The position numbers and the translations under genes were made by a program. Shown piece by piece: positions 34,601 through 58,600 of a stretch of DNA of 64,000 nt. Under the pieces are notes generated by a model. That model saw nothing but the letters and a program-made list of their open reading frames with translations, searched no databases and had not been told where the DNA came from. The first letter of the stretch is position 1. The number at the start of each line of letters is the position of its first letter. The DNA comes from Saccostrea cucullata (taxonomy: Eukaryota). The DNA lies in NCBI RefSeq assembly GCF_032062105.1, contig NW_026937660.1, forward strand, positions 1 to 64,000. The letters are read 5' to 3'.

Positions 34601-37600
34601 GTTGTAAAGAACATGAACGGAAACTGCAAATAATTGAATTTTTTCTAAGTCCAAGGGGCATTACTCTGTCAAAAATGGCGCGATCGTACCCGAAACAACA
34701 GTTGACCTAGATATTTATCTGATATATCTGTATACCAAATTTCATTTCAGAAAATGAATGGAAACTAAATGGACCGACAGACCGACGGACCGACAGACAG
34801 CAGCAAAGCAATATGTCCTCCCTTCTTCGAAGGGGGGCATAAAAATGCATTCTCAGAATATAATCTATATAGCCACGTCCTAGCACTTGAAATCCTGACA
34901 CTGGGGCCATAAATTTCACAATTTTGGTAGTGCACTCATTGCTCATTACATTCATGCCAACAGTTTGACTGCTTGGTGTCATGAAATAAAGAGGAAGAAT
35001 TTTAAAGATTTCATTAGTTTTTGTAGTTTTTGCCCCACCCCTAAGGCCCCAGGGGTGCAGGGATAAAAAATTCACAATTTTTCTTCCCCTTTACCCATAT
35101 ACACTGTATACCAAATTTGGTTTAAATTGGTTCAGTGGTTTCAGAGAAGAAGCATGAAAATGTTTAAATGTAAACACACGACACACTACGATGGACAAAA
35201 ACAGATAATGTAAGATTCTGTAAAATTTTTACAATTATTGTGTAAGAAAATTTTTTGCAAGGATTCAATTTTGGCATCATTAGCATGCATTGTGAGATAG
35301 CAAAAATTTAATATCACTAAAATTAATTTTTAATGGGTTTTTCAGTGATTTTTTTAAGATCTCAACAAATCTGCATTATTTCTTAGTTATTGCTCCTTGG
35401 TATTGTTTGGTCATTCATCTGAAAAGAATTTGAATACCCTTTACACTAGGATTCCCTGTGCCAAGTTTGGTAAAAATTGGACTGTTGTTCTGGAGAAGAG
35501 GTTTAAATTCTGAAAAGTTTACAACAATGGCACACCGCAACAACAGAGAGCATAAAAATTTTGATCAGGGAAGTTCAAATTAATCTATCCTTCATATTTA
35601 ATCAAGTATCACAATATTTACCTATTTTTCCATTTTCCTTCATGAGTTGACCATTCTCTTCTACTGTTTCTAAAATACATGTATTTTATTAATTAAGAAT
35701 GTGTAAGAAAATCTAGCATTAAGTTTGAAATCTTATGAGTTAATCATTAATTCTTAAAAAATTAAGGAAGGTTACTATAATTCTTGCTGATACAAATGCT
35801 AACTAGTAACCAATATGAAATAGGAAATGATGCATTACAGTGCAATTTCGATGAACGGGGTGGGAAAGCTGGTGCCTATTGGATACTTAGTGAAATAACT
35901 TAGGAAGGAGAGGGGGATATGAGAATCTGTGTGAAATAAATACTCGAATTAATATAAATGCATGTCATAATTTTACCTTTTTCAGTAAGGCATTGCTCTT
36001 TAGATTTAGCTTGACGTCTCTTCAGTAAAAAAATTGCAACAGCGGTTCCAACTACCAGAAGGATTCCAATTGTAATAGTGATTTCAATAATAAGTTCCAA
36101 GTTTATATCTTTAACATTTTCCATATCTGACCTATAAATGAAGGGAACAAAAGAGCAAACAAATTAAATCATTTTAATCATAACTATTAATTGATGCTTA
36201 TAATTAATGTTCTTGACTTTCAGTTGATATTTTAATATCAAATAATTGAATAAGGGCCTGAGGTTCAAATGAAAAAAATGGCTACACAAAAATGTTTTTT
36301 TTTAAATATATATGAATAAAGTCATAAATATCATTAAAAGATTTTTTATACACTATATTATTTTATCATAATGAAATAAATGAATCAAAGTGTCTGCAGA
36401 TAAATTTTCTATGATTGATGATGATTATAATAGATAACAGGTTTAGATACCAAAGGAAGGATAACTCTTTGAATGATGAAACATTTAAATGGAACATAGT
36501 GTCTAAAAGAGTTATCTTTCTTTGCATACAAGAGAATATTACATCAAAGCGTACAGGGGAATTTATTAGTGTGTCAATACATTTTTTCCTAGCATTGATA
36601 AAAATAAACAAAAGGACTCGGAACAAGTACAAAAGTGACACTTGTTAATTATATAACTCACTCTTCAACCATGGACATATTTTCAGTCGGTACATTTGTA
36701 TCAGAGGTAGGGACAGACGCTGCTGTAGTTGGATTCTGTACTGTGGATTTCTTTGTCAGATCATAGCAACCAGGGTCTGAAAAAAAAGATCATGATTATA
36801 ATTTTGTTTATATCATTCATATAGGTTGTTACGAAATTCGTTTCGTCACTTTTATATATTTCATTGATCACTCGCAGCGTATGCAGTTGTTATCAGCATA
36901 TTGATATGTACATGATTGTTTGTTATTAAATAATTAATAGCGAGCGCAGCGAGCGTCGCAAAGCGACGCTCGCGAAGCGAGCTCAATAGACTAACGTGTA
37001 TGAACAGAGGAAATTCGGATTGAAATCCGTACATACGTCAGCCAAATTTCTCTGTGCAACATTCCCAGAATTCCTGCACTACCCAATGTCCTTTGCGCGA
37101 ATAAGTCAAAAATAGTAAAAAAATGAAAGGAACATTGTTTCTTACCGAAATCTTAACGAAATGATTTAGCCTTAGGCCCTACCTTATTAAAAAAAAAATA
37201 CCCCCATGCCACAACACCGGCCTTCACCTTGCCCTTCGGAAATGATACAAATGACGTCACCGGAAACTTACGAATTTTGACGAAGTTATGTCGGTTGCTT
37301 CCGTGAAACTCGGAAAACATGTTGCGGTGCATAGCAACAACTTACTTGAAAAGAACGATTAAATGCAATCTCTTTTCCATAAAACTAGCGTTTGCGTCCT
37401 AAGTCAACAGAGCTTTTCATCTGACGTCATACTTTCGTCACTTCAACGGTTCGGGTATTTCCAATTTTGTCGGAAACTTCCGAGAAGTTTGGAATCTCGA
37501 TCCCGATGCTTGGGAAATGATTTCTTTTTATAGTTTTGTTTTATTCTTTTTGCTTTCTTTTTCTTGAATGATAGACAGTACATGTGTAAGTTTTTGATAG

Positions 37601-40600
37601 TAAATAAACTGCGCTCGTCCCAACGGTCACACCGTAAAACATATTAAAAAGTTGTAAAAGAAATAAGTTATATGCTGTCAATCATATAATATTGTTTTGG
37701 AATCGGGTTCACTGTATTTCGACCCGGTCTCGATCTCGATAGCATGTTTGAAGTCAATTATCACATTTCGTCTTTGAACATTGTATTGTCATTGTTTAAA
37801 TCAACTTAATAACGTAATAGCTACTTGTACTTATCGTATTTTGGTAGATAAAATCCCATTTTGTATGGTTAGTAATGATTTTCTATTAGAAAACTTCTCT
37901 GCGTGCACTTTCCCTGATTTGTTTATACCGGAAGTGGCGTAGGGTCATTCCGGGTCAGCGATTGGCTAATTGAGGTTACCAGTGGGTACAGTAAAGGTAT
38001 ACAAGTTTAGCTTTTGAAAAAAGCTTAGATAGTCAGCCACTGGATTTTTATTCCTTGGTGAAACATTTTACAGCGGTACAAAACATTTATATTGGTCATT
38101 TTTAATACCAGTATTTTCAATAGACCCAATATTTAACAAGAGTTAGTTCTTGTTGGCCGCCACATTGGGGTTTAACATGCTCCTATTATATCAGAATGTA
38201 TCCAACTGTAACTTTTATACTGGCAATGATGTAGGCATGTTACAGCAGGTGTGGCACGATAAAGATCCCTCCCTACTCAATGGCCCTGAGTGCCTAGCAT
38301 AATCCTAAATTTGCAGCCCTTCACTGGCAATCAGTGAAATATTCTGGAGAGGGGCATTAAAAAGTATACAATCAATCAATCTTTCTATATATTGTGTACC
38401 CTTGAGAAAACTTCACATTGGTTTTTTGAACGATAAGTACTAGGGCTTTTATACCTTATACATGTAATCCTTTTGAAAAGACTTACATTGGATACCAAGC
38501 ATTTTGAATTTTGACTCTGACTATGACCTTTAAATTTAACCTACTTTTAAAAACCAATCCTTGATTATAACCTTAAAGGGTTAAGGCTAGTGCTCCCAAT
38601 TATTTTACACATTAAATCCCTGTTACAAGATCTTTCATTTCATACCGAGAATTTTGACCCTTTTACCATGACTTTTAACCTACTTTATATTTTTTTAACC
38701 TGAACGTTTAAGACTTCCATACTGTACATAGTTTCTTGTGTGGCATGAGTTTTTTGGATATCAATTACCTTGACATTTTGACCTTGGACACTTTTATACT
38801 TATTGAAATAAATACTTCAACAATGAACTACTTCTCAAATTTCACAATTGTTTTCTAGTAAGATTACATATTTTTGGTACCAATTAATTTAATTTGCATT
38901 TAAGAAAAATTTATTTTGGGATTTTGCCATACAAGGGGCATCAGTGTTTCACAAACACATCTTGTTTCTCACTTAAATGTAACTAAAAACAATGTGGTCG
39001 ATGTCAGAAATCTTGAAAAGAAAGAATCAATTTTAGTGTCAATACTTGTGTTTATTCAAGTAATAAACAAAACAGAAACAAACATGAGTAAAAAAAATTG
39101 AACAATGTCTATTCTACTATCAGTTAATCTGTTGGTTAACAATTTAAACAACATGTACAAAAAGTATATGAGTTACCTGAGTTTTACAGATTTTAAAAGT
39201 TCAGTTGAAATGTACTTATATAATATAAATGTATAAAAAGGAATGCAAGTTATCACAATGTTTGACTAAAAAAATTTTAGTAAACAGTAGCAATGAAATG
39301 ATCAATATCTTGTAAATACTGTAAGAAAACCACCTCTTTGAATGTATTAGGCAATGCATATAAAAACAGGCAATATATAAAATATCAAAAACATATAGCA
39401 CCCTCTTGTACACATAAAAAATTTGCTAACTAGTCTTATGGCTTTTTTCTAAAAAAAAAAAAAAAAAACTACATCAAAAAATGGACAAACTGGCTATGTT
39501 GTGAAAAAAAATATTTACACAAGATGCATTCAGAAATTCACTATTAAACAAATAAGGAATTAATTTAAAAAAAAAAGGAAAAAACATCTGGTATGTTAAC
39601 TGATTAATATCAACTGCATATACAATCCTAAAGTATGAGAATTGTGAACAGTAAATTTTTCATTTTTTAACATTTTATGCATCTTTATTTAATAACACAA
39701 AAACTGTTATAAAAGATACTAAATAAAAAGTTTCGAAACAGAAATGAACAACTATGCTAAAAATATATATACAAAAGAAGAAGAAAAAAAAAACTCAGAA
39801 GCAATCATTAACCAGTAATGAACTTATAATATGAAGCTTTAAAGTTACATCATATTTAATAACCACTCTTTTACAAGTAATAATGTCAAGTAGCATTATG
39901 GGTTTTTTTTTTTTTGTTTTAAAATGATTTTAAAAAGTTGTAAAACTTTTGATGCTTTGTAATATTCTTATTGATAGCTAAAAATTTCACATCACAGTTT
40001 GAAGTTGCTTAAAAGTCTCATTTTTGTTGTTTTAGTCTGAGTTAAAGTTCCTGTACTTCAATTATCTCAAGTCCCATGGTAAAACCTGCATACATTGATT
40101 TTATTCTCAAAATCAATCATGTTTCAATAAGTCACCAGAAGCAGGAAGGGCAATCTCTTAAGGAGCACTTGTTTTACTGCAGTTTTAAAACTTCTTAATG
40201 GTTGTAATTTTGTTACTGTTGAAAGCGAATTTTACTCTTATTGGCATTGCAGATTTAAGGCTGCACAAGGTCTCATCTTTGTTGCTCAAGTCTGACTTGA
40301 AGTTCATTGATTCCAATAGTTGTATTAGTCCGTCAGTAAATACTGTAAAAACGTTCATTTTGTTCTCACAATTAATGAGAACCTTCAGAATGCCAGCATA
40401 CCCTGCCGAGTTCACAGTATATTGAATTGCGCAATTCGGACACCGGAAATCCTCTCCTACCTTTTTTTTGCAGCACTTTGGGATGAGGCAGCACCTATAA
40501 TATATATTGTTCAAAAATAATTCAGAAGGGAAATATAAATAATTCATGATTATCTTAAAATTCTTGTGCCAGTTTTAAATTAATTTCATTTAACTATAAT

Positions 40601-43600
40601 TCAATATTATTTTGGCTATATATACAAATAGTGTGCTTTTGATAATTTATTTATATAGTGTTTCAGGCACTAATTTATTAATGAAATCAAAACCTTGTAT
40701 ACAAACTTATAAGAAGAGGCCCATGTGTCAAATCACTCACTTGAATTGCTTTGTTTATGCTATTTTTTACATTTTCTTCTTCATATAATTATTGTGACTT
40801 TTACCTCATGAGTCAATGACTGCCAAATTTGTATAATTTAAAATATATACTACCCCTGGGTGCTTTCACATATCATATAAGTTTCAGCTATACTGGCCTA
40901 TCAGTTCCTGAAAATTTTAGAAGTTTTTCCTAAAGATTTCTATGTAAAACTTGGATTACAAATTATGGCCCCACCCTAGTCCTGGGATTGTGAATTAAAC
41001 AATGTAGAAATAATGCTCCCCTAGGGTTCTTTCACAAAAGTTTTAGTTTTTCATTACAAATTATGGCCCCACCCTAGTCCTGGGATTGTGAATTAAACAA
41101 TGTAGAAATAATGCTCCCCTAGGGTTCTTTCACAAAAGTTTTAGTTTTTCTGACCCAGTGTTTTACAAGAATAAGATATTAATGAATTTGCCTATTTACA
41201 TTTCTATGTAAAAACTTGTTTCCAAAAGTGGCCCAACTAAACTCTCTGAGGTCATGATTTAGATTTTACACTTCCCCAAGATGCTTAAAAACAACACACT
41301 ATATTTGTATTTTTTGATTATTTCCTCTTATGAAATTACTTGGCAATTCAGACAAACATGATGTGATTAGAAAACCTTTGCCTTTGGTGAGCTAAAAAAA
41401 CACATTAACATTATTACCTGTAAGTGAAGAGGCTTTCAATTCCAATTATGGTTCCAGTTGGCATAACTGCACTCTCCTCTTCACTATCTTGGTCGTCATC
41501 AGATATCTCAGCAAACGAAGGAATGAACTAAAATTCAATTATTTCCATTACCAGTATATCATATGAGAAAAATATGAAATGAAATGTATGATCAAATTGA
41601 TAAAACTTACAAACCATGAAAAGTAAACACATTTTATACAGAATATAAATTGAAATCTTACAACATATAAAAAAAACAGAAATAAAACTATTTTTTGAAA
41701 ACTATTTTGAAAAAATTGAAAGAAAGCTAAAGAAAAAATATTAGTTTGCAATTTACCTCTACTGCTGATTGAGATGACCTGTTGGAGAGAACAGGTTTTT
41801 GTGCCTTTGTTTTCATGTCAAAGGTTTGTGTTGTCGTAAAATTATGAAGGGCGACATAACAGCCTTGCTTTACTGGTGTATCTGCAAATTCCCTCCATAA
41901 GGCTACGTTAACAACTCCACTTCCATCTTTGACCTTTAGTCTCTTAAAAGGGACTTCTTCTCTAGTGTTGCGTAGTCTCTTAGTGGTAGGTGCACATGCC
42001 TAAAGGCAAAGTAAATATAAATTAATATATGCTTATTTATCATTAAGGGAAAGAAAGATTAAATTTAAATGTTAAGAAACCCATATAAAGATTAAATTTA
42101 AATGTTAAGAAACCCATATAAAAATTTATATATAAGAAATATTACATCTTGTTATGGCTATGATACATACAAGGACAACTTTCCCTTTGATAGAGACTGT
42201 AGTTCTATGAGGGGATGTTGCTGCACTCAATATAGGCATGCAGTCTGGTTTCTTTGTTGCTTCTTCTAAGACCTCTTTGGGGACTGTTACCATTTCTTTG
42301 TTGGTAGTGAACACATTGGAAACCTGAGTTACAACCAGAGATCTACACAATAAAGAACAAAATAATATTACTGTACATGTTATAATTTTATAAAAATAAT
42401 TCATTAATTCTAGTCCTTAATTTAGCCAAGTTATTAAACTATGTGACCTTTTCCACATAAATTCTTACAACTTAGATTCTTACAAATTGTGCCCATTTTC
42501 TCAATTAATATTACAGTTTTAGTAAGACTTCAAAAATTCTTTAGAAAGATTTTTTTTTAAAAGGGTCACTGATGCTCATTTAAAAAATAAAATCAGGAAA
42601 TATTTACCCATCTTCCTTCTTAACAAAATCCGTCAGGATGAGTACTTCTCCTTCCTTAAATAACGGAAATTTTGATGCGTCATACAAATGCACCTCTGTG
42701 TGACTTGTAGAGTCGGCAATTTTGGCGGTCACCATTTGACTCGCTCCCTTCTTCTTTGAGGTGTATGATGTTGGAGCCGAAACTTCCAACACTTTAACAG
42801 TCAGAAATGACTTAAGGGTGTGTTCTCCTTGCAGATTTTTTACGCCTTGTAGTGTTGAAACATCTGTAAAGCAAGAAAAGAAATATTAGTCATTAGAGTA
42901 TAAAATACAAGAATCCGAGGAGCATAAACTGAGTGGCAATAGTTTGTATTAGTGATTTAAATTCAACTTACCAAATAAATTAATAAGAAGATGGAAATGC
43001 TGTGTGTAATATTTGAATTAATGAATAAGGTAACTAAGTACAATCTCCAACAGCAAAATTTTTATTATTTGGGTATTTGAGAGGCAAACATGATGAAAAT
43101 TTTAAATACAAACTAATTTTGACTTTGGTTTTTATTTGTAATATAGCATTTCTAAACTCATATAATTTGTTCATGGTTCATTTTTTTTCCTGTGCAATCT
43201 TACATACTCTTCAATAACACTTTGATCAGCAGTTATTTTATGTAAAGCCAAGCTTAATAATTGTACATTTTCTAATGTTCTAACTCTACTTAGAGCAACA
43301 TAAGCTTGGCCGTGCTGAAATAACGAGTTGTTTAAAGATATTGCTGCTTTATGCAAGGATAACCCTTGCACCTTATGTACTGTTGCTGCCCAACATGGCA
43401 TTAATGGAAATGTTTCTCTAATAATATAGCGACCATGACTTAAAAATTCTTGCCTGTACATAAACAGAGTTACAGAACCATTGCTATTGGATACAGTAAG
43501 TGGAATCTTTTCAGAGTTGTCAAACTTTACATTTAAACTGTTAACATTTGTTTCATTTTCATTTACTGATACACTAGAAATTACTCCACGAGCACCATTT

Positions 43601-46600
43601 ATTAATCCATATTTGACACATAAATTTCTCAGCAACATAATTTTTGTACCAATAGATACCACCAGAACAGATGGTAGTCCACCTGCATCTCTGTCATCTT
43701 CTGGTATTAAGTCTTCATCAACATCTCCATTTACATTAATATCATTATCTGAGAAATAATGTTTAGCACATATGCTGTAATGCGTTTCATTTATATTGCT
43801 TTGAATTGCACAATTATGATTTTGAACTTGTTTTCTTGTAGCATAAATGTACAAAATGTTTGGATTTGGCTGATTATGCTCATAAATTCTGCTTTTTAAG
43901 ATATCAACATCATCAGAAGTCATTTGACCAATGCGCACACGATTTAATAACTGTGCATAATCAGAGTCTTCTGACTGTCTCATATTTTGTTGCAAAAAAA
44001 AGGGTTTAAATAAAGGCCAAAGAATTTGATGTTTGAAAGTAAATTCTCCTCGTACTGGACGTAGCTGAAAAAAGTCTCCAACTACTATGATATTTAAACC
44101 TCCAAAAGGCTGATCATTATTTTGAATTGTTTGTAAACGGTCATGAATAAGCTCAAACATTTGTGAACTAACCATGCTTATTTCATCAATGATAACTGTA
44201 TGCTTACTTTTTAATTCAGTACGCATTTTCTTCAATACTGTAGCAGACAACTGACTATTATTGAAATGGTAACCGTGTTGAACAGGTAATTTCAAAGCTG
44301 AGTGAATTGTTTGACCATTTATATTATGAGCTGCCACACCTGTAGGAGCAAGAATTAAAACAGGATCATGCCCAGAGAATGAAGCTGTACAAACCCTGAA
44401 ATATTGTATAAGGAATTCAATCAAGTAACTTTTCCCCACACCAGCTCCTCCTGTTATGAACATCTGAAACTTTTGCCTCTTCAACATTGATTCTTTTATG
44501 TATTTAAATACATGGCATTGATCTCTAGTTAGCCGTTTAAATTTTTCAGCCAATGTATTATTATCAATGCATGTTGAAAGACAGTGCCATTGCATATCTG
44601 TGCTGTCTAGATCTAAACAATTATCTGCCTTGATTGTTGCATTTGAAAGATTTTGTTCTGAAATTAAATTAGGAATACTCTCTGAATCTTCAAAATCTTC
44701 ATGTAATGATATAGGTTCAGTATCATTTTCACAGGTATTTGGAGCCATCATATCAAATTCAATGTTTGACAAATGAATAGATTGAATTATTGAATCTAAT
44801 TCTGGCATTTGAAACCCAATCTGTATTGCTTCATTATCAAAAAATCTGTATTTATTTAGAAAAGCATCTTTAACACAAGAATAAGGCTCTAAAAGTTCTT
44901 GTGCATTTCTGTGGGGTAAAAACAAAAGTAAATAGCTGAAGTAATAATCATCACTACCACGTCTAGGTTTACAAGTTCTAACAACTGCTAGAACTGTGCG
45001 TCTTTGTATATAAATGTCTCCAGGAATGGGTAATTTGTAACTTTCAATTGTTTTAGCCAATTTTCGAACTACTTTAAACTGCCGACAAAATGAAAACAAC
45101 GACAAAGAATTCAAGTGCATAGGTCGTGCATAATAGTAATCATAAATGTTGTTTTCAAAGATGTCTGTTGAATTTAATGGCAATTGATTTAAAACATTTT
45201 GTGGTTTCAATTTTTTAAATTGTTTCTCAGGAGTGTATGTAAGAACTTTTACAACTTCCCTAGAAAACCATGTCAACTGCAAATGTCCTATTCTATAAGC
45301 TGCTTCTTGAGCACTTAAAGTTCTATGCTTTAAAATACAAAAGCCAATTTTGCAAAGTTTTGACCTTAATGATGGTGAATTCACTGAGTCTTGAATGTTC
45401 CGCAGTGTCTCGGCTAATGCATTTTTTAAAGTATTTGGTTCTGATTTGCAAATATAACTACATACATAGTATGCTACACCAAATGGTCCATTTACCATTT
45501 GAATGTCCATGTTTGCTTGCCAGTGAAGTAAAATTATTGGATTGTATGCATTAACCATTGAATCTTCAGGACCTCTTTTAGTTTCATAGAATTTTTTACT
45601 TCCAGTAACATCTAGTCCTGTAATAAGGTGTGTTTTATTGCAAGGCTCATAAGGGAATGAAAATCTACAGGAGTTACCCCTTAAACATGTTGGCCTATGA
45701 CTATGAATTTGATATTTCTTTACATATGAAGAAAGAATACTGCTCTCATTTCTAGGAATAGTTGTATGAATAACTTTGTCTATGTAATTTACCAATTCAT
45801 TTTGAGATGAACTATTGAAAACAGATGGCACATTTTCTATCCAGAAGAAAATATGCAAATGTGGACTTCCTCTTGCTTGGAATTCAATGCGAGCAAAATA
45901 GTCAAGTACTTTACCAAGTGGCTGAGCAGGACCATTGACTACATGACGCAACAGTGCTCTCCATCGTCTTTCAAAATGTATTGCAGTTAAAAGGGGGTTA
46001 TTTTGTACAGCTGACGGAAGTTGGTCAAGCGGTACATTTAAGGTACTTGCAAGCTCAGGCCAATGATAATCATTAGCAGAAAGTGTCATAAATAATGTTG
46101 GACAACCAATGTTTTTAATCATGGCTAACAAATTAAACAAAGTATCTTTCCAGTATGCCACAGTCCCCCTGATCTGTTTCATGAACATAAATGAGTTGTT
46201 ATTTAAATCTGGGTTATTATTCAAAGACTGCAACTCGCTTAACTGTAATAAATTCTGTCCAGATGAATGTTTCCGTACCCTCATATAAATAGAAACAACC
46301 TCAAATAATTTTAATTTTTCAAAGGTATTCACTGAACTTAAGAGGTATGATACATTTGTCCTCCAACGGTCATCGGTATTATATAACCTTGCTTTATAAT
46401 ATTGTAATAAAGTTAACTTTTTCAGTCTCTGAAAGTTGTATCCACATTTTCCATAAGGAAACAAAGTTGGGAAGGCCATTTCCTCACCACTTTGCAACTT
46501 GAATATATCTTTGAGTGAAGAAGAAATGGGTAATTTATAAGAATTACCACTTAACCGTAAAACATCAGACATATTTATGTCTGGCATGTCATAATTTTGT

Positions 46601-49600
46601 TCTATAGTTCCTATTTCAGGTAAATCTGCTATGTCATATGGTATTTCATTTTCACACGCAGATAACGAGTCCAGTACATTCTCTACATCTAGGTCATTAT
46701 ACAGTGGATTATTGAGCATTAACCATCTTAATGCATATTCAACTTTACCAACATTTACAGATTTTGGAACTTGATTATTACTTGATGGAAATATTACAGC
46801 TAAATTTTGATTGTTCATGCAAGATTTCAATCCATGCAATACGTCAGTTACATTCAATGGCAAATGTATTACTAATCCTTTCATACCAAATTGACTCACT
46901 GGAAAAGCAGGCAACAACACTAATGAAAAAAAAGTGTTTAACTTTGAAATGCACCTCTTTTCAGATAGGGAGAGTCCTTTCAATTCTTTGGGTATTTGCC
47001 CAGCATCTAAATTATTGAGAACATAATCCAAGGGAGACATCTCTCCTCTCTTTAAGCATGTGTAACAAAATCTGCATAATGAACACCCCTCAGACACATT
47101 GAACTGCTCAAACACATCTTTAGAAATAACAACTTGATTTTTAAATAAGATTCGCTTACAAACAATACAACAATGTTCTGGTTTCATGTTTATCTGAGTA
47201 ACAAACTTCTGACACCTATTGATTTGAGAAGTTACATTTTGATGGGAGGTCCTATCATGTTCTGTGATGGGGACTTGTTGTAAGTTGTCAATCAAAGTAT
47301 TCAAGGGATGCTGGGGCATATGTACACGAAGTACATTATCTTTGGAAATATCAACATTGAAATATTCTTGATTTAATGAGTAACTATGATCACTTTGCAA
47401 CATAGGTCTAGTTGGTTGTGTATTTCCCCTGGAGAAATTAAAATAATCATGGTCAAGCATTACATAATATTCTTCATCATAGTCAACATTTGTCATACAT
47501 GGTTCTTTGCCCCTAAATATTTCCCCCTGTGATTTACCATTATTTTTTTGTGTCATACTATTAAATGGCATATTATTGAGGTCTCCTGATTTTGTGCAAT
47601 TTTTCTTTCTTGACTTATTTAAATCAGTATTAAAAGTAGCTCTTCTTGGACAAGAGGATTGTTCTCTTTCTGTTTGAAATGCATTTACTGTTTGAACCCT
47701 AACTGATGATAACTCAAACGTTAAACCACTATACTCTGTTGCTAAATATCTTGATAAGGATTCCAAATCTATAAAAGTAAGTAATACAGCTGTACCATTG
47801 CTACATCTGGAACCATCTTGATTGCAGCTATGAGAATCAAACACAGAATACTCATTCGAAAGCTCATTGTGTGCCAATGCAATAGAATATTCAGAAAAAG
47901 TAGCAAGCACGCTTGAGCTCGATGAAAAAGCATCAGTAACACCCGTCGATAAATTTACAGAGCCAGAGGCAATATCACCCCTTTCCCCAACAACTCCATA
48001 CCAAGATACTTCATTCACAGACACTTCAAAATCCACACCATGATTGAACAAGTTATGCAAGTAATGTGGTATCTCATTATGCTGCAAATTTCTGGGTAAA
48101 ATGTTAAGATTTTGTACTGTTTCAACATATCTGTGATGTCCTTCTTGAACTATTTCATTTATGTTTGCACATGTCAAGTCATTAATTTCTGAATTAAATG
48201 AAAGGAAGCACAAAGCTACACACGCTATGACAGTACATTGTCTTCCAGCATATGCAAGGTCAAAATAAGGATATCCTTGGTGTAATGAACCTTGGAATGA
48301 CCTCATGATTAAGCAAAAATTCCAAACACTTTATAGTACCCTTATTTTTTTCTCTGTAACAAACTTCAACAAATTTATGGAAGAAATGAGTAAAAATTAC
48401 TTACCCCCTTCAGTGTCAACCTGAACAGCACTAGAGTCCGAAGACATCGCCATTTTGAAAAATGAAATCGCAGACTGACGGTAATCCCATGCACAGATTG
48501 ATATAACTGAAATGAATGCAGCGACGCAGTTTCCTTATTTATACTCGGGTCGCGGACGTCGGTGAAGACACCCTAAGCTACAGCGTTAAGACAATGGGCG
48601 AGATGCCCATTTCACCGCATTTGTGTTTCTTTCTCTATTTCACTTCCTTGTTCTTAAGCATTCTATTCATATTTGAGCGCCAAATATACACAGTTAATAA
48701 CAGACTAGAGGAGAAGGAGGGAGAAGTTGGGAGGATACGAAAGCCTCCAGATTATTATTTTAGAAGTACTCCCATCATTGGTAATCATTAAAGGGATGGC
48801 AGACCCTATGCAGACCAGATGGGTAATTATATTAGTCAAGTTATATTAAATTGAGACGCTGAGATATCCCTGTGGGAGACCCATAAGTAGAGTGGGAGAC
48901 CCATCGACGGGAAAACTTATGGGAGAATTTATGGGAGTACAATTTATTATTAAAACTATATAGGTCTTACAGAATAGGCATAAATAAATTATATTAAACC
49001 AAGGAAAGTATATTTTAGTACAAGTAGCTAATTTTTATAATTATTTTGGGAGATTTAGATTTTACCTACGGGTTGTGGGAGTGACTTCACTTTATAAGAG
49101 ACTGGTATATATATTGTATTGTGATTTTTATTATAACAATACTTACATTTAATTGTACATAGTGTAAATAAATTTTATTTGTTGAACTTTTATCCTGACT
49201 TAATTATTAATTTATAAGTTAACATACGAGAGTGGAAAGCCCACACAGTTGCCCCACTCTCTCCCGAGGTGGGAGGCGCAACACTGGTGTCAGAAGTGGG
49301 ATCAAGTCCCTTTGATTGGGAAGAAATTTTCCACATTCTCGGTTAGCTTTATTAAATTCAAAATTTTACAATCATTGAAATTTCATAGTATACAATAAAA
49401 AAAATAAAAAAAAAAAAAAGTCACAGAAATGTCAGATTTAGAAGAGTCCGGGGAAGTCACTTTCAGACCCATAGGTCAGCAAATTTTCAGTCCCGCTGGA
49501 TCCATTGCGGATAACGGGAAATTCCCTGCTCCCACAGAAGGTATCTCAGCAGCCATGTCTCCCATATCTGAAAATGCAAATGTGTCATTAGTTAAGGTTT

Positions 49601-52600
49601 TACAAGAGCAATTTTCTAGAGAATTTGCAAAAATGAATCAAAAGATAGGAGAGCAATTTGTAAGCATTAGGGAAGAAATTGATGGGAGGTTAGAGAATAT
49701 GCAGGAAGAGATTTTTAAATTTAAACACGAATCCCAGAATTTATGGGAACGGGATCAAACAAGGGTAAAAGATGCCCACATAAATAATAGACCCCCGTAT
49801 CAAATCCCATCACATTTAAGTAATGACAATGTTAGGGAAAATAGACACCCAAGTTCATATGACCAATATAGAGTGGGAGAAGAGAATGGGATAAATAGAG
49901 GGATGATAGGATCTCAATTCAATTTTACAGGTGACCTCCCAGAATTTAGTAGGAAAGATTCAAGGTCAGGGATGGGAGATTACCATCAGTTACCCAGTGT
50001 ACCCAAATTAAACAGGTTTAGCACTCCCGATCACAATGGGAGTAGGAATGTGTTAACACCCACTAGGGATCCCCCGAGGGAAAGGGCTAAACCTAGGATA
50101 TTTGATGGGAATGAAGATTTTGATGATTATCTCTCTCAGTTTGAGATAGTCGCAGACCTTAATAATTGGGATTACAAGACTAAATCTTTACAGTTAGCAG
50201 GTCATTTAGCTAAAGATGCATGTAGTTTGTTGGGAGAGTTGAGCCCAGGTCAGAGAAGGGATTTTAATACCCTGATAACAGCCTTGAAAAGACGCTTTGG
50301 GGCCACAGAAAGATCTGAAATGTTTAGGGCAAGATTGAAAACCCGGGTGAGGGGTCAAAATGAGAGCATCTCTGAGCTGGCCCAGGCAATAAAAAAAATA
50401 ACCAGACAAGCCTATCCCAGCGCTGAGCCCAGTCTCACTGACGTATTAGCATTAGACCAATTTATAGACGCGTTACCAGATCCCGACATTAGGCTGCGCC
50501 TGAGGGAGGCCCGACCTAGGGATATAAATGAAGCCGAAACTCTAGCAATTAGGTTAGAAACTTATAGGTTGGCGGATACACAGAAGTGTGCAAAGTTTAA
50601 CAATGTAAACGCCATAGATGCTAGTGGGAGTGGTAACACCCAAGATTCATTTAAATTGACCAAATTATTGGGGAGATTAAATGAAAACATAGAAAGGTTA
50701 GAAAAAACAACCAGAATACAGAATCCCAGTCCACCTTTTAAAAAAGGAAATTGGAAAAATTGGAATTAGAAAATTAACCAGGGTTGGAAAGCTCAAAAAT
50801 CCGGTTATAATGGCCCAAATAATAAAAAAAAATGGGAATGGTTATTCTTGGGGAAATCAAAATGGTAGCACCCAAAATCAAGGTCCCAAAAAGGGAAATA
50901 ACTCAAGTTCAGGGAAACAACAGGGAAACCTTCCCGTGTCGGCTTCGGGGGTCGGAAATCGACAAAATTTGGGGGAAGACCCACTCCATTAGAAGAGATT
51001 GAAATAAAACCCCAGGAAAATGAAACAAAGTTTCAGGAAATTGTAGGTGAAAATAAAAATGAATCAAATGTTAATGATACTCTTTTGACCTCAAATGAGG
51101 GAGATGGGAATGAAAAAGTTGAGAGGGATATGGGAGAGAAATCTGGCCCAAAAGAAACCCTTTCTCAAGCTACCAAAGTAATTGTTCATAATGCAAGCAA
51201 AATTGAATCAGGTATATTTGTTCCCACACAAATCAATGGGAAAGAATGCAGATTTTTAGTAGATTCTGGGGCAGATGTTACCATTATCAGTACCCAATTT
51301 TTAGAGAAATGTTTTGGAGGGAAATCACCTCCCTTAGAACCCTATGATGTGAAACCAGTCTCTGCTACAGGGGACCCAATACCAAATAGTGGGAAATGTG
51401 AAGTCCATTTTAAAATGGGGAAAAATGAAATCACCCACAAAGTGATAGTAGCTGATATTAGATACAACGGTATCTTAGGTTTAGACTTCATGACTGAACA
51501 TTCATGTGATATCTTAGTACAAAAGATGTGTTTACGGGTTAAGGGTCAAGAGATCCCTTGTTTTAGATTTAGTAGTGATGAGGTAGATTGTACCTTTAGA
51601 GTTGCATTAATGGAGGACGTGAAAGTACCTCCCAACTCAGAGTTTATTGCCCATGGTAGAATTTTGGATTCTATTCCTAAATGGGATGAGGCTTTGGTAG
51701 AGCCAAATATAGAATTTATGGGTAAACATGAAGTGTTAGTGGCTAGGACACTTGTAAACCCCACATCTGGGATAATCCCATTAAAAGTCATGAATGTGTC
51801 AGATAGGGAAATTGAACTCCATAAAAATAGTCTTATGGGAGGAATGGAGAAAGTCTCTATGTTAAAAGATGATAGTTTAGCTATATCAGAAATCAGCTTA
51901 GAAGATACCCCCACTAAATTACCAGAACATTTGAAAAATCTGTATGAAGAGACATGTATTGGAATAACAGAAATTGAAAAAGAGCAATTAAAAGATTTAC
52001 TTGTAGAGTATCAGGGTTGTTTCTCTAAAAATTCTGAGGATATGGGACTTACAAATATGGCAGAGCATAGAATAGATACTGGGAATAATAGACCCATTAA
52101 ACAAGCCCCAAGGAGAATTCCTCTCGCCAAAATGCAAGATGTTAATAGGGAAATTAAAGAAATGTTAGCTAAGGGAGTGATTGAAGAATCAGATAGTCCC
52201 TGGAGCTCCCCTATAGTTCTAGTTAAAAAGAAAGATAACTCGATAAGGTTTTGTATAGACTTTAGAAAACTCAATGAGGTAACTATCAAGGATAGTCACC
52301 CTATTCCTAGGATAGAGTCAATATTAGATGCCCTTTCCGGATCAAAATACTATTCCACTATAGATTTGAAAAGTGGGTATTGGCAGGTTAAGGTAGCAGA
52401 GGAAGATAAACCTAAAACAGCATTCTCAATCCCGGGGGGTGGTCATTGGAATTTTACTGTCATGCCATTCGGTTTGTGCAACGCGGGGGCCACTTTCCAA
52501 AGATTGATGGAAAAAGTACTCTCTCATTTGTCGTGGGAAATTTGCATGGTATATCTTGATGACATTATTGTCTTAGCCCCTAATTTTTCCCAACACCTTA

Positions 52601-55600
52601 GGAACTTAGAAAAAGTGTTCAGTAGATTAAAGAAAGCAAACCTTAAAATCAACCCTAAAAAGTGCAAACTTTTACAGAGGAAAGTAGCATACTTAAGACA
52701 TATTATCAGTGAACAGGGAATAAAGACTGACCCTGACAAAATTGATGCGGTCCAAGATTTGCCCACACCTAAAAATGTTAGGGATGTCCGTAGTTTTCTA
52801 GGTATTTGTTCCTATTATCGGAAATTTGTTCAAGGGTTTTCTGTAATAGCTAAGCCCTTGCACAAATTAACAGAAAAATCCCAAAAGTTTGTATGGGACT
52901 CAGACTGTCAAGAAGCCTTTGACAAGTTGAAAAGAGCTTTAACCAGCAGCCCAATACTTTCTTATCCCAAGAAAGAGGGACAATATGTGATAGATACAGA
53001 TGCCTCAAACACTGGCATGGGATCTGTACTATCCCAAATCCAGGATGGGGAAGAAAAAGTCATAAGTTACTATAGTAAGCTATTCAATACGGCTGAACGC
53101 CGATACTGTGTGACTAGACGGGAATTGTTAGCTATTATTCAGTCCATCAAACACTTTCACCATTATCTTTATGGGCAAGTATTTAAAATAAGAACAGACC
53201 ATGGTTCATTACGATGGCTTCTGAAATTTAAGAATCCCGAAGGTCAAATAGCCCGTTGGCTAGAAACATTAGCTTCTTACCAATTTGAAATAGAACACAG
53301 GCCAGGTCGCTTGCATGGGAACGCAGATGCTTTATCCCGCAGACCTTGTGCTGATGTGGAGTGTACATACTGTGCTAAAGCAGAGGTAAAATACCTACCT
53401 GAAGAATCTACACAAAAGTGTTCAGTTATTGAAACTAGGTCGAAACAAAAGGCACCTGAAAATAAAGAAAGATTAATTAGCACAGAAAATTTTGATGTGG
53501 GAAAATATCAAAATGAAGACCCAGATTTAAAGCATGTTATTAAGTGGGTACAAGATGGAACTCAACCCAGTTGGGAAGATATATCCCATTTAAGTGAGAC
53601 TTGTAAATTTTATTGGGTTCGATTCGAGTCTTTAGAGTACAGACACAATACCTTGTACTATGTCCATGATGGGTTAGAAAGAAATTATTGTATAGTGATC
53701 CCAAAAGCTTTAGTGGGAGAAGTTTTGACCCTATTACACAATAGTACTACAGGAGGTCACTTAGGTATTAAGAAAACCCTATCTAAAGTAAGGGAAAGAT
53801 ATTTTTGGTACCAAATGAGTACTGATACAAAACATTGATGTGTTACATGTGACACTTGTGAGTCTAGAAAATCCCCTAATAGGAGGATGAGAGCCCCACT
53901 TCAAAAATATGTGGTTGGTGCTCCTTTAGAGAGGGTAGCAATTGACGTTATGGGACCATTGCCCAAATCCAATAAGGGAAATCTCTACATCTTAGTTATG
54001 GGCGATTATTTTACAAAATGGGTGGATGCGGTACCCATACGTAATCAGAAAGCTGTCACAGTCGCTCAAAAGTTAATTGATAGAATAGTTAGTATTTTTG
54101 GAACACCCATGCAAATCCACAGTGATCAGGGAAGATCATTCGAGTCAGATGTATTTAGGGAAATGTGTAGGATTTTAGGCATCGAGAAAACCCGAACCTC
54201 ACCATATAGACCTCAGTCAGATGGGTTGGTAGAGCGGGCAAACAGAACAATAGAAAATATGTTAGCATCATTTGTTTCTCAAAATCAGAAAGATTGGGAC
54301 GAACATTTACCCTTGCTCATGTTAGCTTATAGGTCAGCCCAGCACGAGTCAACTGGCGTAAGTCCATGTGAGATGATGTTTGGTAGGCATGTTTCTCTCC
54401 CAGCCGATTTAGTATTGGGAAGGTTACAACCTGAAAGTACATTAGAAATGTCAGAATATGCTTACAAATTGTCTCAATCTATGGATAAAATACATGAGTT
54501 TGCCAGGGATAAAATGAGTTTAGCTACAGAAAAAATGTTAAGGGAATACAATTCAAAGATAAATTTTCAAGGTTATGAAGAGGGAGATCTTGTATGGTAC
54601 TACGCCCATAATATTAATAAAATGGGATCACCCAAGCTCCAATGTCGTTGGTTAGGACCTTACTTAATTCTGAAAAGAATCAATGATGTTATATACAAAA
54701 TTAGAAAAACAACAAAAAGTAAATCCAAGGTTGTTCACTATAATTTGTTGAAGCCTTACAAAGGAAGTAATAGACCCAACTAGAAATATGGGATCTGCCT
54801 CGAAATATATGTAGCTTAGTGAATATTAAATATACTCATCATTTTGTCGGAAATTTTAGTAAATCATATTAATATGCAGTTTTATTATGCCCATTATTAA
54901 TGTTTGGGATGTTGTCAGAAATGAGGGACTAAGTATCCCTTTATTACTTTACAGATCCAAAGATTCAAATGTGGACTATGCACAGAAGACAGAGAGTTCA
55001 CGCAACAGAGTCACTGTGAGAGGCACATGACTGCAGTGCACTCGGGGTTCGTGTTCCGATGTGCCACTTGCGGGATCGTACTTGGACGAAAAGATCAAAA
55101 GCACGGGTGTGAGGGCAGGACCCTGCAGAGAGTGAAGAAATCAACACTCACGCTCACCATAGAGGAAGAGAAGGAGTTTGAGGCCTTCCAACGTGGGAGA
55201 GGGAGACATGTCGTGCCCTTCATGAAGGAGCTCCCCTTAGTGTTCAGCGATCAGCCGTACCACCAGGGCCAAGCAAAAAAGAGAGCAATATACACGGAGC
55301 CTCACCAAGGACGGAATGCCAAGAAGCGACCAAAGAGATCCGCACAAGCGCCAGCACTCCTGTCATCACATAGGTCCGCCCCAGCGCCTGCACTCCTGTC
55401 GATGTCGACCGAGAAGTCCATCACAGCGCCTGCGCCCTTGTCAACCAAGATGCCCACTCCAGGGCCTGCGCTCCTGTCGACTGAGAAGTCCGACACAGCG
55501 CCTGCGCCCTTGTCAACCAAGATGCCCACTCCAGGGCCTGCGCTCCTGTCGACCGAGAAGTCCGACCCAGCGCCTGCACTCCTATCAATGCCGACCGTGA

Positions 55601-58600
55601 AGTCCACCCCAGCGCCTGCTCTCTTGTCGACTGAGAAGCCCCAAGTCCATCCCAGCGTCTCCACTCCTGCAGTCGGAAAAGTCAACATCATCACGTCAGA
55701 GTAAGAACGATACACCGCAGAGGAGGTCTTTCAAACGATTATTCGGGGACAGTTTAAGTGACTCGTCAGATGAAGAAGATCTTCTTACTCCTGATATTTC
55801 AATAACGGAGCCTCCTGTTACCTCTACACCGAGTAGAATCCTAACAACCATGACGGAGAGGGAGTTTGACAAACGAGACGTTTCGATACAGACTTCCTCC
55901 AGTGGTAGCGCACATCCCTTAGTGTCACAACAATGTATTGGTCTGGATGTTGGCGGGAAACTATTTGTGACGACAGTTGCCACTCTTACAAACCAACCTG
56001 ATTCCCTTTTCGCAAGGATGATGGAGGACCCCACCTTATTACCTGCTTATAATATACTGGATAGAGGGAACCTACCAGTCTACTTTATTGACCGTGATGC
56101 CACCTACTTCGATGTCATACTCCATTACATGAGAGATGGACCGAAGAACATTAATTGTCATTTACCTAATGACGTAAGGACCTTAAGGAAAATCCACATC
56201 GAAGCGGTATATTATAGATTAGAGACGCTAGTCGAAATAATTGGTAGCCAGCTGTTTGTAATGATCTTTGGACACATAGAGTTCTCAGAAGAATAACTGT
56301 AATTTGTGAAGATAAAATATGATTTGTGTGTTTTGGAATATATGTCCAATTTTTATAAATACTCATTCATGTCAAATGTTTTGATGATAGGAGAAGTATT
56401 GTAAATCCAACTAAGTCCAGTTCTTTTGTTTTGTTGTTGTTGTTATAAATATCAAGTAGTTAAGGGATGGATGTAGCCGAAATGTTTTTATATAATAATT
56501 ACATGTAGCATTAGTCATTGCGATGAGTATATGGATTCAATTAATGTGATATGATTGATTATCATATTTTATTAATGCTACTTCTTGTCATGTTATGCAT
56601 GTCATTGTACATTTTAATTGCATTATTGTTATATTGATTCATACTTACTTCTATAACTGCAAGTGATGTTTTCAGTAGACCCAAGTCCAGTTGCATTCGG
56701 GACGAATGTTTTCTTCAGGAGGGGGCTATGTTACGAAATTCGTTTCGTCACTTTTATATATTTCATTGATCACTCGCAGCGTATGCAGTTGTTATCAGCA
56801 TATTGATATGTACATGATTGTTTGTTATTAAATAATTAATAAAAAGTTGTAAAAGAAATAAGTTATATGCTGTCAATCATATAATATTGTTTTGGAATCG
56901 GGTTCACTGTATTTCGACCCGGTCTCGATCTCGATAGCATGTTTAAAGTCAATTATCACATTTCGTCTTTGAACATTGTTTTGTCATTGTTTAAATCAAC
57001 TTAATAACGTAATAGCTACTTGTACTTATCGTATTTTGGTAGATAAAATCCCATTTTGTATGGTTAGTAATGATTTTCTATTAGAAAACTTCTCTGCGTG
57101 CACTTTCCCTGATTTGTTTATACCGGAAGTGGCGTAGGGTCATTCCGGGTCAGCGATTGGCTAATTGAGGTTACCAGTGGGTACAGTAAAGGTATATAAA
57201 GAAGCGAAAATTTCGTCTGCTAGAGGAGAAGGGGGGAGAAGTTGGGAGGATACGAAAGCCTCCAGATTATTATTTTAGAAGTACTCCCATCATTGGTAAT
57301 CATTAAAGGGATGGCAGACCCTATGCAGACCAGATGGGTAATTATATTAGTCAAGTTATATTAAATTGAGACGCTGAGATATCCCTGTGGGAGACCCATA
57401 AGTAGAGTGGGAGACCCATCGACGGGAAAACTTATGGGAGAATTTATGGGAGTTACAATTTATTATTAAAACTATATAGGTCTTACAGAATAGGCATAAA
57501 TAAATTATATTAAACCAAGGAAAGTATATTTTAGTACAAGTAGCTAATTTTTATAATTATTTTGGGAGATTTAGATTTTACCTACGGGTTGTGGGAGTGA
57601 CTTCACTTTATAAGAGACTGGTATATATATTGTATTGTGATTTTTATTATAACAATCCTTACATTTAATTGTACATAGTGTAAATAAATTTTATTTGTTG
57701 AACTTTTATCCTGACTTAATTATTAATTTATAAGTTAACATACGAGAGTGGAAAGCCCACACAGTTGCCCCACTCTCTCCCGAGGTGGGAGGCGCAACAT
57801 AGGTAATGATATACATTTACAATGTGTCTCGATATCATATTAAATATATGTTCCTTTATGAAACTTTAAGCTAAAGGGTACAGAATTTTTTTTTCATCAT
57901 CATTTCTAAAGTTAATTTACGGGAAAAAGTTAAAAACACGTTATTAGCATAAAGAAAAGAAAAATGAATGGAGGAGGGAATTAAACTGACACAGACACCC
58001 CCTCCCCCTCCCAGGCCCCTTCCTCCATTCATTTTTTTTTTTTTTTTTTGTTATTCAGCAAAATTAATTTAAGTTAAAGAATAAAATATACACAGTTAAG
58101 TAAAATTGTGTATTCTATTGAACACTTACATTTGTATGCTTCTGTGGAGTGGTAGCCACTGGGACATGGATTCTGGGTAAACTTGGAACAGTCTGTATCA
58201 TAATTCTGCTGGATTATATTGCCACTGTAGCTGTACTCCGTACAATAACCTGTAAATATTGTCAAAATTAGATGTCTGTGCCTATAGGAAATAATATACA
58301 TTTACAATGTGTCTCGATATCAGATCAATATATGTTCCTTTATGAAACTTTAAGCTAAAGGGTACAGAATTTTTTTTTCATCATCATTTCTTAAGTTAAT
58401 TTAAGGGAAAAAGTTAAAAACACGTTATTAGCATAATTTAAAAAAAAAACACAAGAAGTCTGTGAACCAAAGTTTAAATTATTAATAAACAATATTCTCT
58501 TCAGTTTTGTGTATATTGCGGTATGGCAAGATGCAGGGATATTTGGTACAGACAGACACATGGATAAGCAGCTAATAAGATAACATCTGATTTATACAGT

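Follow-up and report, generated by a model that had tools for sequence, protein, structure and literature searches.

The locus studied here raises the question of why an oyster retrotransposon should carry a gene for a zinc-finger and BTB protein downstream of integrase, and of what such a protein may do for the element. The usual picture of an animal LTR retrotransposon is of gag-pol, accompanied or not by env, and of dependence on host transcription factors. The window (the whole 64,000-nt stretch of Saccostrea cucullata DNA analysed) was found by a Pfam-type domain search to contain gag followed by the order PR-RT-RH-IN, as in the Ty3/Gypsy class, and TG..CA LTRs, target-site duplication, primer-binding site and polypurine tract (PPT) were all present; features lie on the + strand unless stated otherwise. 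The element is flanked by the 5-bp duplication TAGGT (36822..36826, second copy at 57800-57804). Its 5′ LTR starts at 36827 and is split by two insertions into piece 1, the start of U3 (36827..36939, 100% identical to the 3′ LTR), piece 2 (37642..38004, 98.9%), the end of which falls inside the TATA box, leaving it partly lost, and piece 3, the likely R-U5 (48705..49283). The first insertion, recognised by LTR comparison, is of about 700 bp and undefined strand (36940..37641); the second, of 10.7 kb on the - strand (38005..48704), carries a 1719-aa Helitron-like ORF (43171-48330) and parts U3 from the leader exon. The primer-binding site (49285..49302), which we take to be tRNA-Leu-like, has the identical 18 bases in related families. 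The ORF list and domain search placed gag at 49429..50769, with an early stop leaving 446 aa vs 518-524 aa in 8 of 11 sister copies, and pol (PR-RT-RH-IN) at 50902..54783, with a stop codon at 53836-53838; in sister copies gag and pol overlap in the -1 frame at GGGAAAC. The PPT (56717..56728) and a complete TG...CA 3′ LTR (56729..57799; TATA box at 57193-57201) follow, the latter with a second copy of leader and donor. Because gag is shortened and pol contains a stop, the window copy is dead; its accessory gene is nonetheless real. The original prediction had overlooked this death, as well as the gene being a marker of a whole clade and the conserved motifs of its linker.

That prediction was of a spliced gene lying after integrase and before the PPT, where env would be, with its start codon in the LTR, and this layout was borne out. 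The leader ATG at 48796 opens a coding exon of nine codons (48796..48822) ending at a phase-0 donor, 48822|GT, and the phase-0 acceptor AG (54953..54954, AG|54955) stands five codons ahead of the first Cys, both sites being where they had been claimed; in unspliced RNA, exon 1 is the start of a 17-codon upstream ORF. RNA support for the proposed mRNA skipping gag-pol was thin. One contig of run X1 (presumed RNA; depth 14.3, 29 letters on the shorter side) contained the joint 48821>54954 (GT..AG, cut +1), while the joint was absent from runs X21 (only 57 reads), X2 and X4. RefSeq protein XP_062606823.1 consists of the 9-residue leader joined to the frame of a sister copy, and the C. virginica model XP_078324263.1 has the identical splice frame, so that the LTR-donor splice is present in RefSeq models from two oyster genera. 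Furthermore, the phase-0 AG five codons before Cys1 was conserved across families (26/32 loci), and a donor with an in-frame ATG was present in 11 of the 18 LTRs examined. A DNA copy derived from the spliced RNA was looked for and not found (0/35 matches start at the acceptor). Antisense exons were considered as a gene and rejected, their longest frame being 57 codons.

In the window copy the accessory coding region consists of two frames (54925-55704 and 55601-56296). Their interruption had been attributed to one slipped C at 55639-55642; it is really a private out-of-frame indel of several bases in the repeat region near 55635, shared by 0/6 aligned copies. The claimed length of about 455 aa turned out to be the upper end of a range of 393-455 aa with the leader, set by repeat number. 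A single ZnF+BTB frame runs through 5 of 11 sister copies, as had been anticipated, and the frame is broken in the other six. Purifying selection was also confirmed, with a dN/dS of 0.03-0.07 against diverged alleles; among young copies the BTB gave 0.15-0.84, values resting on few changes. Divergence of the gene was not mainly of CpG type.

The N-terminal domain (54955..55296) contains a C2H2 finger with Q/S/H/R at positions -1/2/3/6, a second module C-x2-C-x10-H-x-C and a helix. Two fingers had been claimed: two Cys/His modules are indeed present and finger 1 is C2H2, but the second is not a canonical finger. The beta-beta-alpha Cys2His2 fold of finger 1 was obtained both by structure model (pLDDT 85) and by profile (ZBTB20, E 2.6e-7; ADR1, E 1.4e-6), and its resemblance to known fingers was modest (rmsd 2.4-3 over some 50 aligned residues, Z about 4). 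The last Cys and first His are 14 residues apart in the window family and 12 in L071, L078 and L081; thus the window family has neither the 12-residue spacing nor the tandem arrangement of canonical fingers. Foldseek with the N-terminal model gave no match at E<=0.001 in the PDB or viral libraries, the nearest ESM Atlas clusters were unnamed or C2H2, and full-length fold prediction was poor (pLDDT 39).

Pro/Ala/Ser/Thr repeats in units of 36/72 nt (55325..55660) follow, in numbers that differ among copies, and then three short linker motifs. SFKRLFGD with an acidic tract (55727..55750; [RK]xLFG in 10/11 copies) is presumably cyclin RxL-like or TIM-like, PPxTSTPx[KR] (55811..55837; 8/11) is assumed to be a CDK/Polo-box-like site, and [DE]xxxQT (55877..55897; 11/11) is taken as an LC8-type motif. 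The KCTD/T1-type BTB domain (55940..56230, residues 298-394 of 415; frame end 56296) matched BTB_2 (PF02214) at E 2e-15 and solved chains at about 1e-13, with KCTD16 and KCTD5 as best solved relatives. The basic motifs, repeats, acidic patch and KCTD-type BTB thus all lie where they had been placed. Pfam found no env family in the accessory protein and no long hydrophobic stretch was seen by eye, in keeping with the view that it is not an envelope protein.

Many of the genome's Gypsy families, with RTs 58-76% identical, have the gene 3′ of integrase; of 31 loci with the finger, 29 have integrase immediately upstream, and the RT and accessory trees largely agree. Named relatives occur in Crassostrea, Pinctada and Mytilus, and the clade with the gene extends over three bivalve orders; the linker motifs are missing from most other families. 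Related Gypsy elements carry finger-only genes, without BTB, at the equivalent position, and in L137 a finger region shares the reading frame of integrase. The phylogeny called for by the original prediction had a branch dividing the element BTBs from host KCTDs (21 vs 12 rows, support 85/83). Young copies without the gene, such as L121 (LTRs 99.8%), retain the word described below, their donor or leader frame having decayed, and in one young copy, L070 (LTRs 99.7%), the gene alone is retained. Copies without the accessory gene still spread, which suggests that it may be dispensable. Our literature search, which lay outside Repbase and most subscription journals, found no published description of the gene.

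What is new here is a word excess in the core families: gag-pol and R-U5 are over-filled on both strands with TGGGA, TGGGT or TAGCT, and which word it is changes along with the residues that finger 1 has at its base-contacting positions. TGGG occurred at 14.4-19.6/kb in 10/10 core copies, with 49 and 52 occurrences on the two strands of L025; 24 further copies of Gypsy elements gave 3.9-9.7/kb, and host DNA 4.8/kb. In the window copy it reached 18.7/kb in gag-pol and 24/kb in the stretch of the 3′ LTR matching 5′ LTR piece 3; the excess was confined to gag-pol and R-U5, with none in U3 or the 3′ UTR. Words were tested by a max-z null, its 95% level at about 3.1, in which the protein, its codon use and the dinucleotides at codon junctions are preserved. 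TGGGA was the top word where finger position -1 is Q or N (z 4.2, 5.4, 3.8), TGGGT where it is L (z 5.5) and TAGCT where H3 is replaced by L (z 3.9), a link that comprises about 3-4 independent contrasts found post hoc. As far as it is set out in the available part of PMC12264921, the published finger code pairs G with R/H and A with Q/N, L for T not being spelled out there. The null was exceeded in 6/7 core families and 0/3 distant ZnF+BTB families; L075 had CGGGA as top word (z 3.3), an in-clade family with a Q3/Q6 finger had TGGG at 8/kb, and L081, L082, L084 and L086 have the gene and no word above null. CpG decay was rejected as the source of TGGG, since the excess falls yet persists under the junction-keeping null. 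The idea that finger-only families as a rule have an "own word" was not supported, 2/9 being clearly above null (L147, 3.4; L154, 3.7), with L142 marginal and nine other copies at or below it.

We consider it somewhat more probable than the contrary that the spliced protein is nuclear, clusters, binds the family word in trans and keeps its own family transcribed. An LTR transcript spliced past gag-pol would yield the conserved zinc-finger/BTB protein, which would likely enter the nucleus and likely cluster through its BTB; it would then bind in trans the short family-specific word across R-U5 and gag-pol, and this binding would hold copies of its own family in transcription. Clustering would convert a low-affinity word of five bases into specificity through density. 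DNA binding is predicted from the finger sequence, oligomer formation from the BTB class, and docking to LC8 and cyclin from the linker motifs. Action in trans is suggested by the gene-less L121 and gene-only L070, and the effect would be activation or anti-silencing rather than repression. The nuclear regulator of the original prediction gains independent support from the finger-word correlation. More tentatively, and with probability on the lower side, this may be a VANC-like self-recognition in an animal LTR lineage, in which a multimeric reader and its target word in gag-pol codons and LTR co-evolve, gene-less copies live off their siblings, and the protein shields the family from host silencing in step with the cell cycle, which would act on it through the cyclin, Polo-box and LC8 motifs.

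Other readings explain parts of these data. The BTB could recruit Cullin-3 while the N-terminal part delivers a host silencing or restriction protein for degradation, much as Vif and Vpx act as degradation adaptors via other cullins. Its KCTD class, with KCTD16 and KCTD5 closest, and a CUL3 gene in the host agree with this, but KCTD16, 15 and 1, which are CUL3 non-binders, score as well as KCTD5. According to a passage in PMC7084138, CRL3 adaptors are numerous among the KCTD proteins. The element BTBs are, however, just 26-45% identical between families, and an adaptor leaves unexplained both the finger-word link and the finger-only genes of related Gypsy. Prediction of four BTB copies together with oyster-type CUL3 (20-285), run without alignments, gave a score of 0.01 and a mark of 0.34, which weighs neither for nor against binding. 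We regard an adaptor role as unlikely, and it may be combined with DNA-binding regulation. Similarly improbable is the same DNA binding with negative sign, a self-repressor or insulator limiting copy number or restricting cell type. The words do lie downstream of the start site (R-U5, gag-pol) and outside U3, copies that lost the gene have spread, and BTB-finger proteins and KCTD1/15 are frequently repressors; yet a pure trans brake should be easily lost, and selection has kept this gene across a clade in three bivalve orders.

A slightly less probable reading puts the protein at the RNA or particle level (export, packaging, leader translation with upstream ORFs, or integration targeting), with hairpins in the RNA, a host factor or biased mutation as the source of the word excess. 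TGGG and CCCA are able to pair, five ATGs precede the gag ATG, a finger region of L137 is read in the frame of integrase, and antisense-type spliced joints exist; against this, the excess survives the junction-dinucleotide null and tracks finger residues, and 24 further Gypsy copies in this host do not show it. That the gene is a passively carried fragment of a captured host KCTD, or a product of chance or assembly, is highly improbable. All three genes of the window copy and the accessory frame of six sisters are broken, but the low dN/dS, the integrase-linked position and splice sites conserved across families and genera refute it, and the element BTBs branch apart from host KCTDs.

These results matter for several reasons. 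A spliced finger+BTB gene is retained by a clade that occurs in three bivalve orders, related Gypsy have finger-only genes at that position, and some oyster or mussel models called "uncharacterized" or "potassium channel regulatory protein" are element genes. Should the finger recognise the word of its own family, animals would have a system comparable to the VANC anti-silencing of plants and to the transactivators of retroviruses, and one that can be tested; families with other finger residues, gene-less copies and a gene-only copy are natural controls.

Among known proteins, the ZBTB/Tramtrack type also joins both domains in one chain, and the fingers closest to finger 1 are those of ZBTB20, ADR1 and Tramtrack. 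As originally predicted, the element protein is nevertheless no ZBTB: those have an N-terminal PF00651 BTB and a C-terminal C2H2 array, whereas here the order is reversed, the BTB is of another class and there is a single canonical finger. With host KCTD5, 16, 1 and 15 it has the T1-type BTB (PF02214) in common; the KCTD family has its BTB at the N-terminus, whereas that of the element is C-terminal, after a finger domain, and is separated in the tree from 12 BTBs of host type. Foamy virus Tas, HTLV Tax and WDSV rv-cyclin, transactivators of complex retroviruses, are spliced and encoded near the 3′ LTR, with a donor near the 5′ end. The oyster gene resembles them in its spliced 3′ position, its 5′ donor and its likely role as nuclear regulator of its own LTR, but belongs to a Gypsy element and has a host-type finger plus BTB; the likeness is one of layout, with no homology seen. 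The env/ORF3 product of errantiviruses has a signal peptide, a fusion ectodomain and a membrane anchor, and is translated from a spliced subgenomic mRNA that includes a leader exon. The oyster gene shares this manner of expression, and its location between integrase and PPT, with env/ORF3 of errantiviruses and of other Gypsy. BTB, KCTD and zinc finger have 0 occurrences in the main text of PMC13524379, which deals with such env genes. Unlike errantivirus env, the oyster protein appears to be without a recognised env family, evident signal peptide or membrane anchor. VANC belongs to Arabidopsis VANDALs, which are DNA transposons; the oyster system differs in being an animal LTR element with a C2H2+BTB protein. 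In the available part of PMC5735166 the VANC motifs are mainly non-coding, while the oyster words lie in gag-pol codons and R-U5; what the two would share is an element-encoded protein, family-specific short motifs and specificity by motif density, shown for VANC and predicted for the oyster element.

The window contains the internal region of a Ty3/Gypsy element, in which gag is followed by PR-RT-RH-IN, with the primer-binding site at 49285, the polypurine tract at 56717 and a complete 3′ LTR at 56729-57799. The 5′ LTR, which starts at 36827 with a 5-bp TSD, is interrupted by two insertions, one of 700 bp and one of 10.7 kb, the latter with a Helitron-like ORF. The former (~700 bp, 36940-37641) lies in U3; the Helitron-like element (38005-48704) was inserted at the TATA box of the LTR and carries an unbroken 1719-aa Rep/PIF1 ORF with DUF6570 (43171-48330, minus strand). 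With a premature stop in gag, a stop in pol and an accessory region split over two frames, the window copy is dead. The features predicted for the accessory gene (leader ATG, donor, acceptor, repeats and BTB) were all located where they had been placed. The frame break had been ascribed to a one-base slip; it involves several bases near 55635 and is private to this copy (0 of 6 aligned copies). In unspliced RNA, five ATGs precede the gag ATG (48796-48931), the first opening a 17-codon ORF; gag translation would need reinitiation or internal entry. Leader and donor recur in the 3′ LTR (57312-57338), from which read-through RNA could splice into host sequence downstream.

The accessory gene is real and conserved. 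As the original prediction implied, it is continuous in sister copies: five of the 11 other full-length copies hold a single frame from acceptor to end (384-446 codons), differing in length mostly by repeat number. The family is young, since the LTR pairs of eight sisters are 97.9-99.9% identical. The predicted RefSeq model XP_062606823.1 of Saccostrea cucullata is one sister copy and its residues 1-9 are the LTR leader; XP_078324263.1 of Crassostrea virginica has an identical junction frame at 55% identity. The proposed splice (48821>54954, GT..AG) was present in one contig of sequencing run X1, presumed to be RNA, and absent from the other three of the four runs compared; the raw run in this check gave 57 reads in total. 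X1 also contained CT..AC joints (49567>53281, 49567>53399 and 53453>54309; one read in X21), which represent spliced antisense RNA over gag-pol with no long ORF within. dN/dS fell below 1 as anticipated, being 0.03-0.07 against diverged alleles, or with silent sites saturated at dN 0.09-0.23; among young copies, changes in the finger domain were mostly silent, and the BTB gave 0.15-0.84 on few changes. When the young family was compared with the old copies L032-L036, divergence at four-fold sites of the gene (54955-56296) was 0.57-0.70, compared with 0.11-0.21 at those of integrase and 0.05-0.19 in non-coding flanks, and a second finger allele, with 32 common changes, occurs in both L024 and L031; these sequence comparisons suggest cassette exchange between lineages.

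The N-terminal 112 residues gave a fold model with pLDDT 85. Finger 1 is of C2H2 type, its family profile matching ZBTB20 (2.6e-7) and ADR1 (1.4e-6), and the structure matches were DNA-bound fingers, all weak. It is followed by a C-x2-C-x10-H-x-C module with a strand and a helix, and the BTB is closest to KCTD16 and KCTD5. Among 11 aligned relatives the linker averages 34% identity and three motifs stand out, [RK]xLFG (10/11), PxxxSTPx[KR] (8/11) and [DE]xxxQT (11/11), which we take to resemble a cyclin-docking or TIM motif, a CDK/Polo-box motif and an LC8 motif, respectively; all three are missing from most other families.

The accessory gene is characteristic of a clade of Gypsy families. 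Protein searches of the genome returned 92 BTB and 83 finger-domain matches. The finger domain was matched in 31 of 40 fetched loci, with integrase directly upstream in 29 of the 31, and many loci had paired LTRs and an RT 58-76% identical to that of the window. Of 32 loci, 26 had a phase-0 AG five codons ahead of the first Cys (and two more had it at six codons). A narrow pattern for a GTAAT donor preceded by a short ATG leader in frame matched 11 of 18 LTRs and none of the remaining 7; the TATA-to-donor spacing was 147 bases in the window versus 84-95 in five other copies. Main groups agreed between RT and accessory trees (11 unbroken copies), and the BTB tree set 21 element BTBs apart from 12 host-type ones (support 85/83). 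On an RT tree of 37 rows, families with the accessory gene fell together to one side of a branch with weak support (74). A profile search over 1.84 billion representatives yielded 58 proteins (E<=0.001), including a few unrelated repeats or plain C2H2 proteins. The named members belong to Crassostrea gigas, Crassostrea angulata, Pinctada imbricata and Mytilus coruscus, and the Mytilus gene model is a fusion with RT-RH-IN. This spread, the tree agreement and the named relatives argue for a single old capture of a KCTD-type BTB followed by mostly vertical descent. KCTD-like genes with a single exon (~240 aa) form an expanded family in the host, where some of them are arranged in tandem (L097-L099, L104). 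Finger-only ORFs between integrase and 3′ LTR also occur in Gypsy families that lie outside the BTB clade (L136, L137, L139, L141-L144, L147, L151, L152, L154, L160). Of nine scanned, eight gave Pfam C2H2-type matches, most of them weak, and many of these ORFs have a QT motif close to their end; the one in L137 shares its frame with integrase. The finger gene may thus predate the BTB.

TGGG occurred at 14.4-19.6/kb in gag-pol of 10 core copies, against 3.9-9.7/kb in 24 other Gypsy copies, 4.8/kb in host DNA and 4.8-9.4/kb in four distant ZnF+BTB copies. In the window it reached 18.7/kb in gag-pol and 24 in R-U5, versus 4.1 in U3 and 6.7 in the accessory region. TGGG is found on both strands. 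Scores were compared with shuffles preserving protein, codon use and junction dinucleotides, all 512 words being allowed for (95% level ~3.1). The top word was TGGGA in L025 (4.2), L069 (5.4) and L072 (3.8), CGGGA in L075 (3.3), TGGGT in L078 (5.5) and TAGCT in L071 (3.9); no word rose above this null in L081, L082, L084 and L086. At positions -1/3/6, finger 1 carries Q/H/R in L025, L069 and L075, N/H/R in L072, L/H/R in L078 and L081, and L/L/R in L071. According to PMC12264921, the 5′ base is read by residue +6, the middle one by +3 and the 3′ one by -1, with R/H for guanine and Q/N for adenine, so Q/H/R predicts GGA. One family, whose finger has Q at both 3 and 6, falls within the same RT group (97% support) and had 8 TGGG/kb, on 2 kb. 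The word appears to track finger 1 residues, an indirect, post hoc relation with few independent contrasts.

Several copies of the L069 family lack the gene, namely L121, whose LTRs are 99.8% identical, L123, and L124/L127, which are a single insertion; there were five full matches in total. These copies retain TGGGA. The donor GT is lost in both LTRs of L121, and the leader is shifted in L124/L127 and intact in L123. About 235 unrelated bases stand in place of the gene (L121:6885-7121). L134 shows a comparable loss in the L082 family, and L070 (LTRs 99.7%) keeps the whole accessory gene and has lost gag-pol. Copies therefore do not require the gene in cis, as would be expected both of a shared trans factor and of a dispensable gene.

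On balance we consider it most likely that the protein acts in the nucleus as a multimer, reads DNA of its own family and keeps the family transcribed. The analysis established the gene, its splice, the selection on it, its spread, the fold model and the word statistics, and we infer DNA binding, oligomer, partners and sign of effect. The KCTD-type BTB would also suit a CRL3 adaptor, which we consider unlikely beside the relation between finger and word; that same relation would serve a self-repressor too, a reading about equally improbable, in whose favour the gene-less copies with near-identical LTRs count. A role at the level of RNA or particles is slightly less probable again. A passenger gene is very improbable beside the low dN/dS against diverged alleles.

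No description of the accessory gene was found in the published papers searched. BTB and KCTD received no mention in the sections consulted of PMC13524379 and PMC12440569; in the corresponding sections, PMC6238403 classes mollusc Gypsy by RT only and PMC7084138 concerns host KCTD genes. The gene is apparently undescribed so far, and the proposed mechanism of an LTR accessory gene is open to direct testing. The element belongs to the Gypsy class, and its accessory gene differs from env and its product from both ZBTB and standard KCTD proteins. Complex retroviruses encode spliced transactivators, to which the gene may be likened. In its working, the protein would most resemble VANC, the anti-silencing protein of VANDAL transposons, which according to PMC5735166 has family-specific motifs whose density is decisive.
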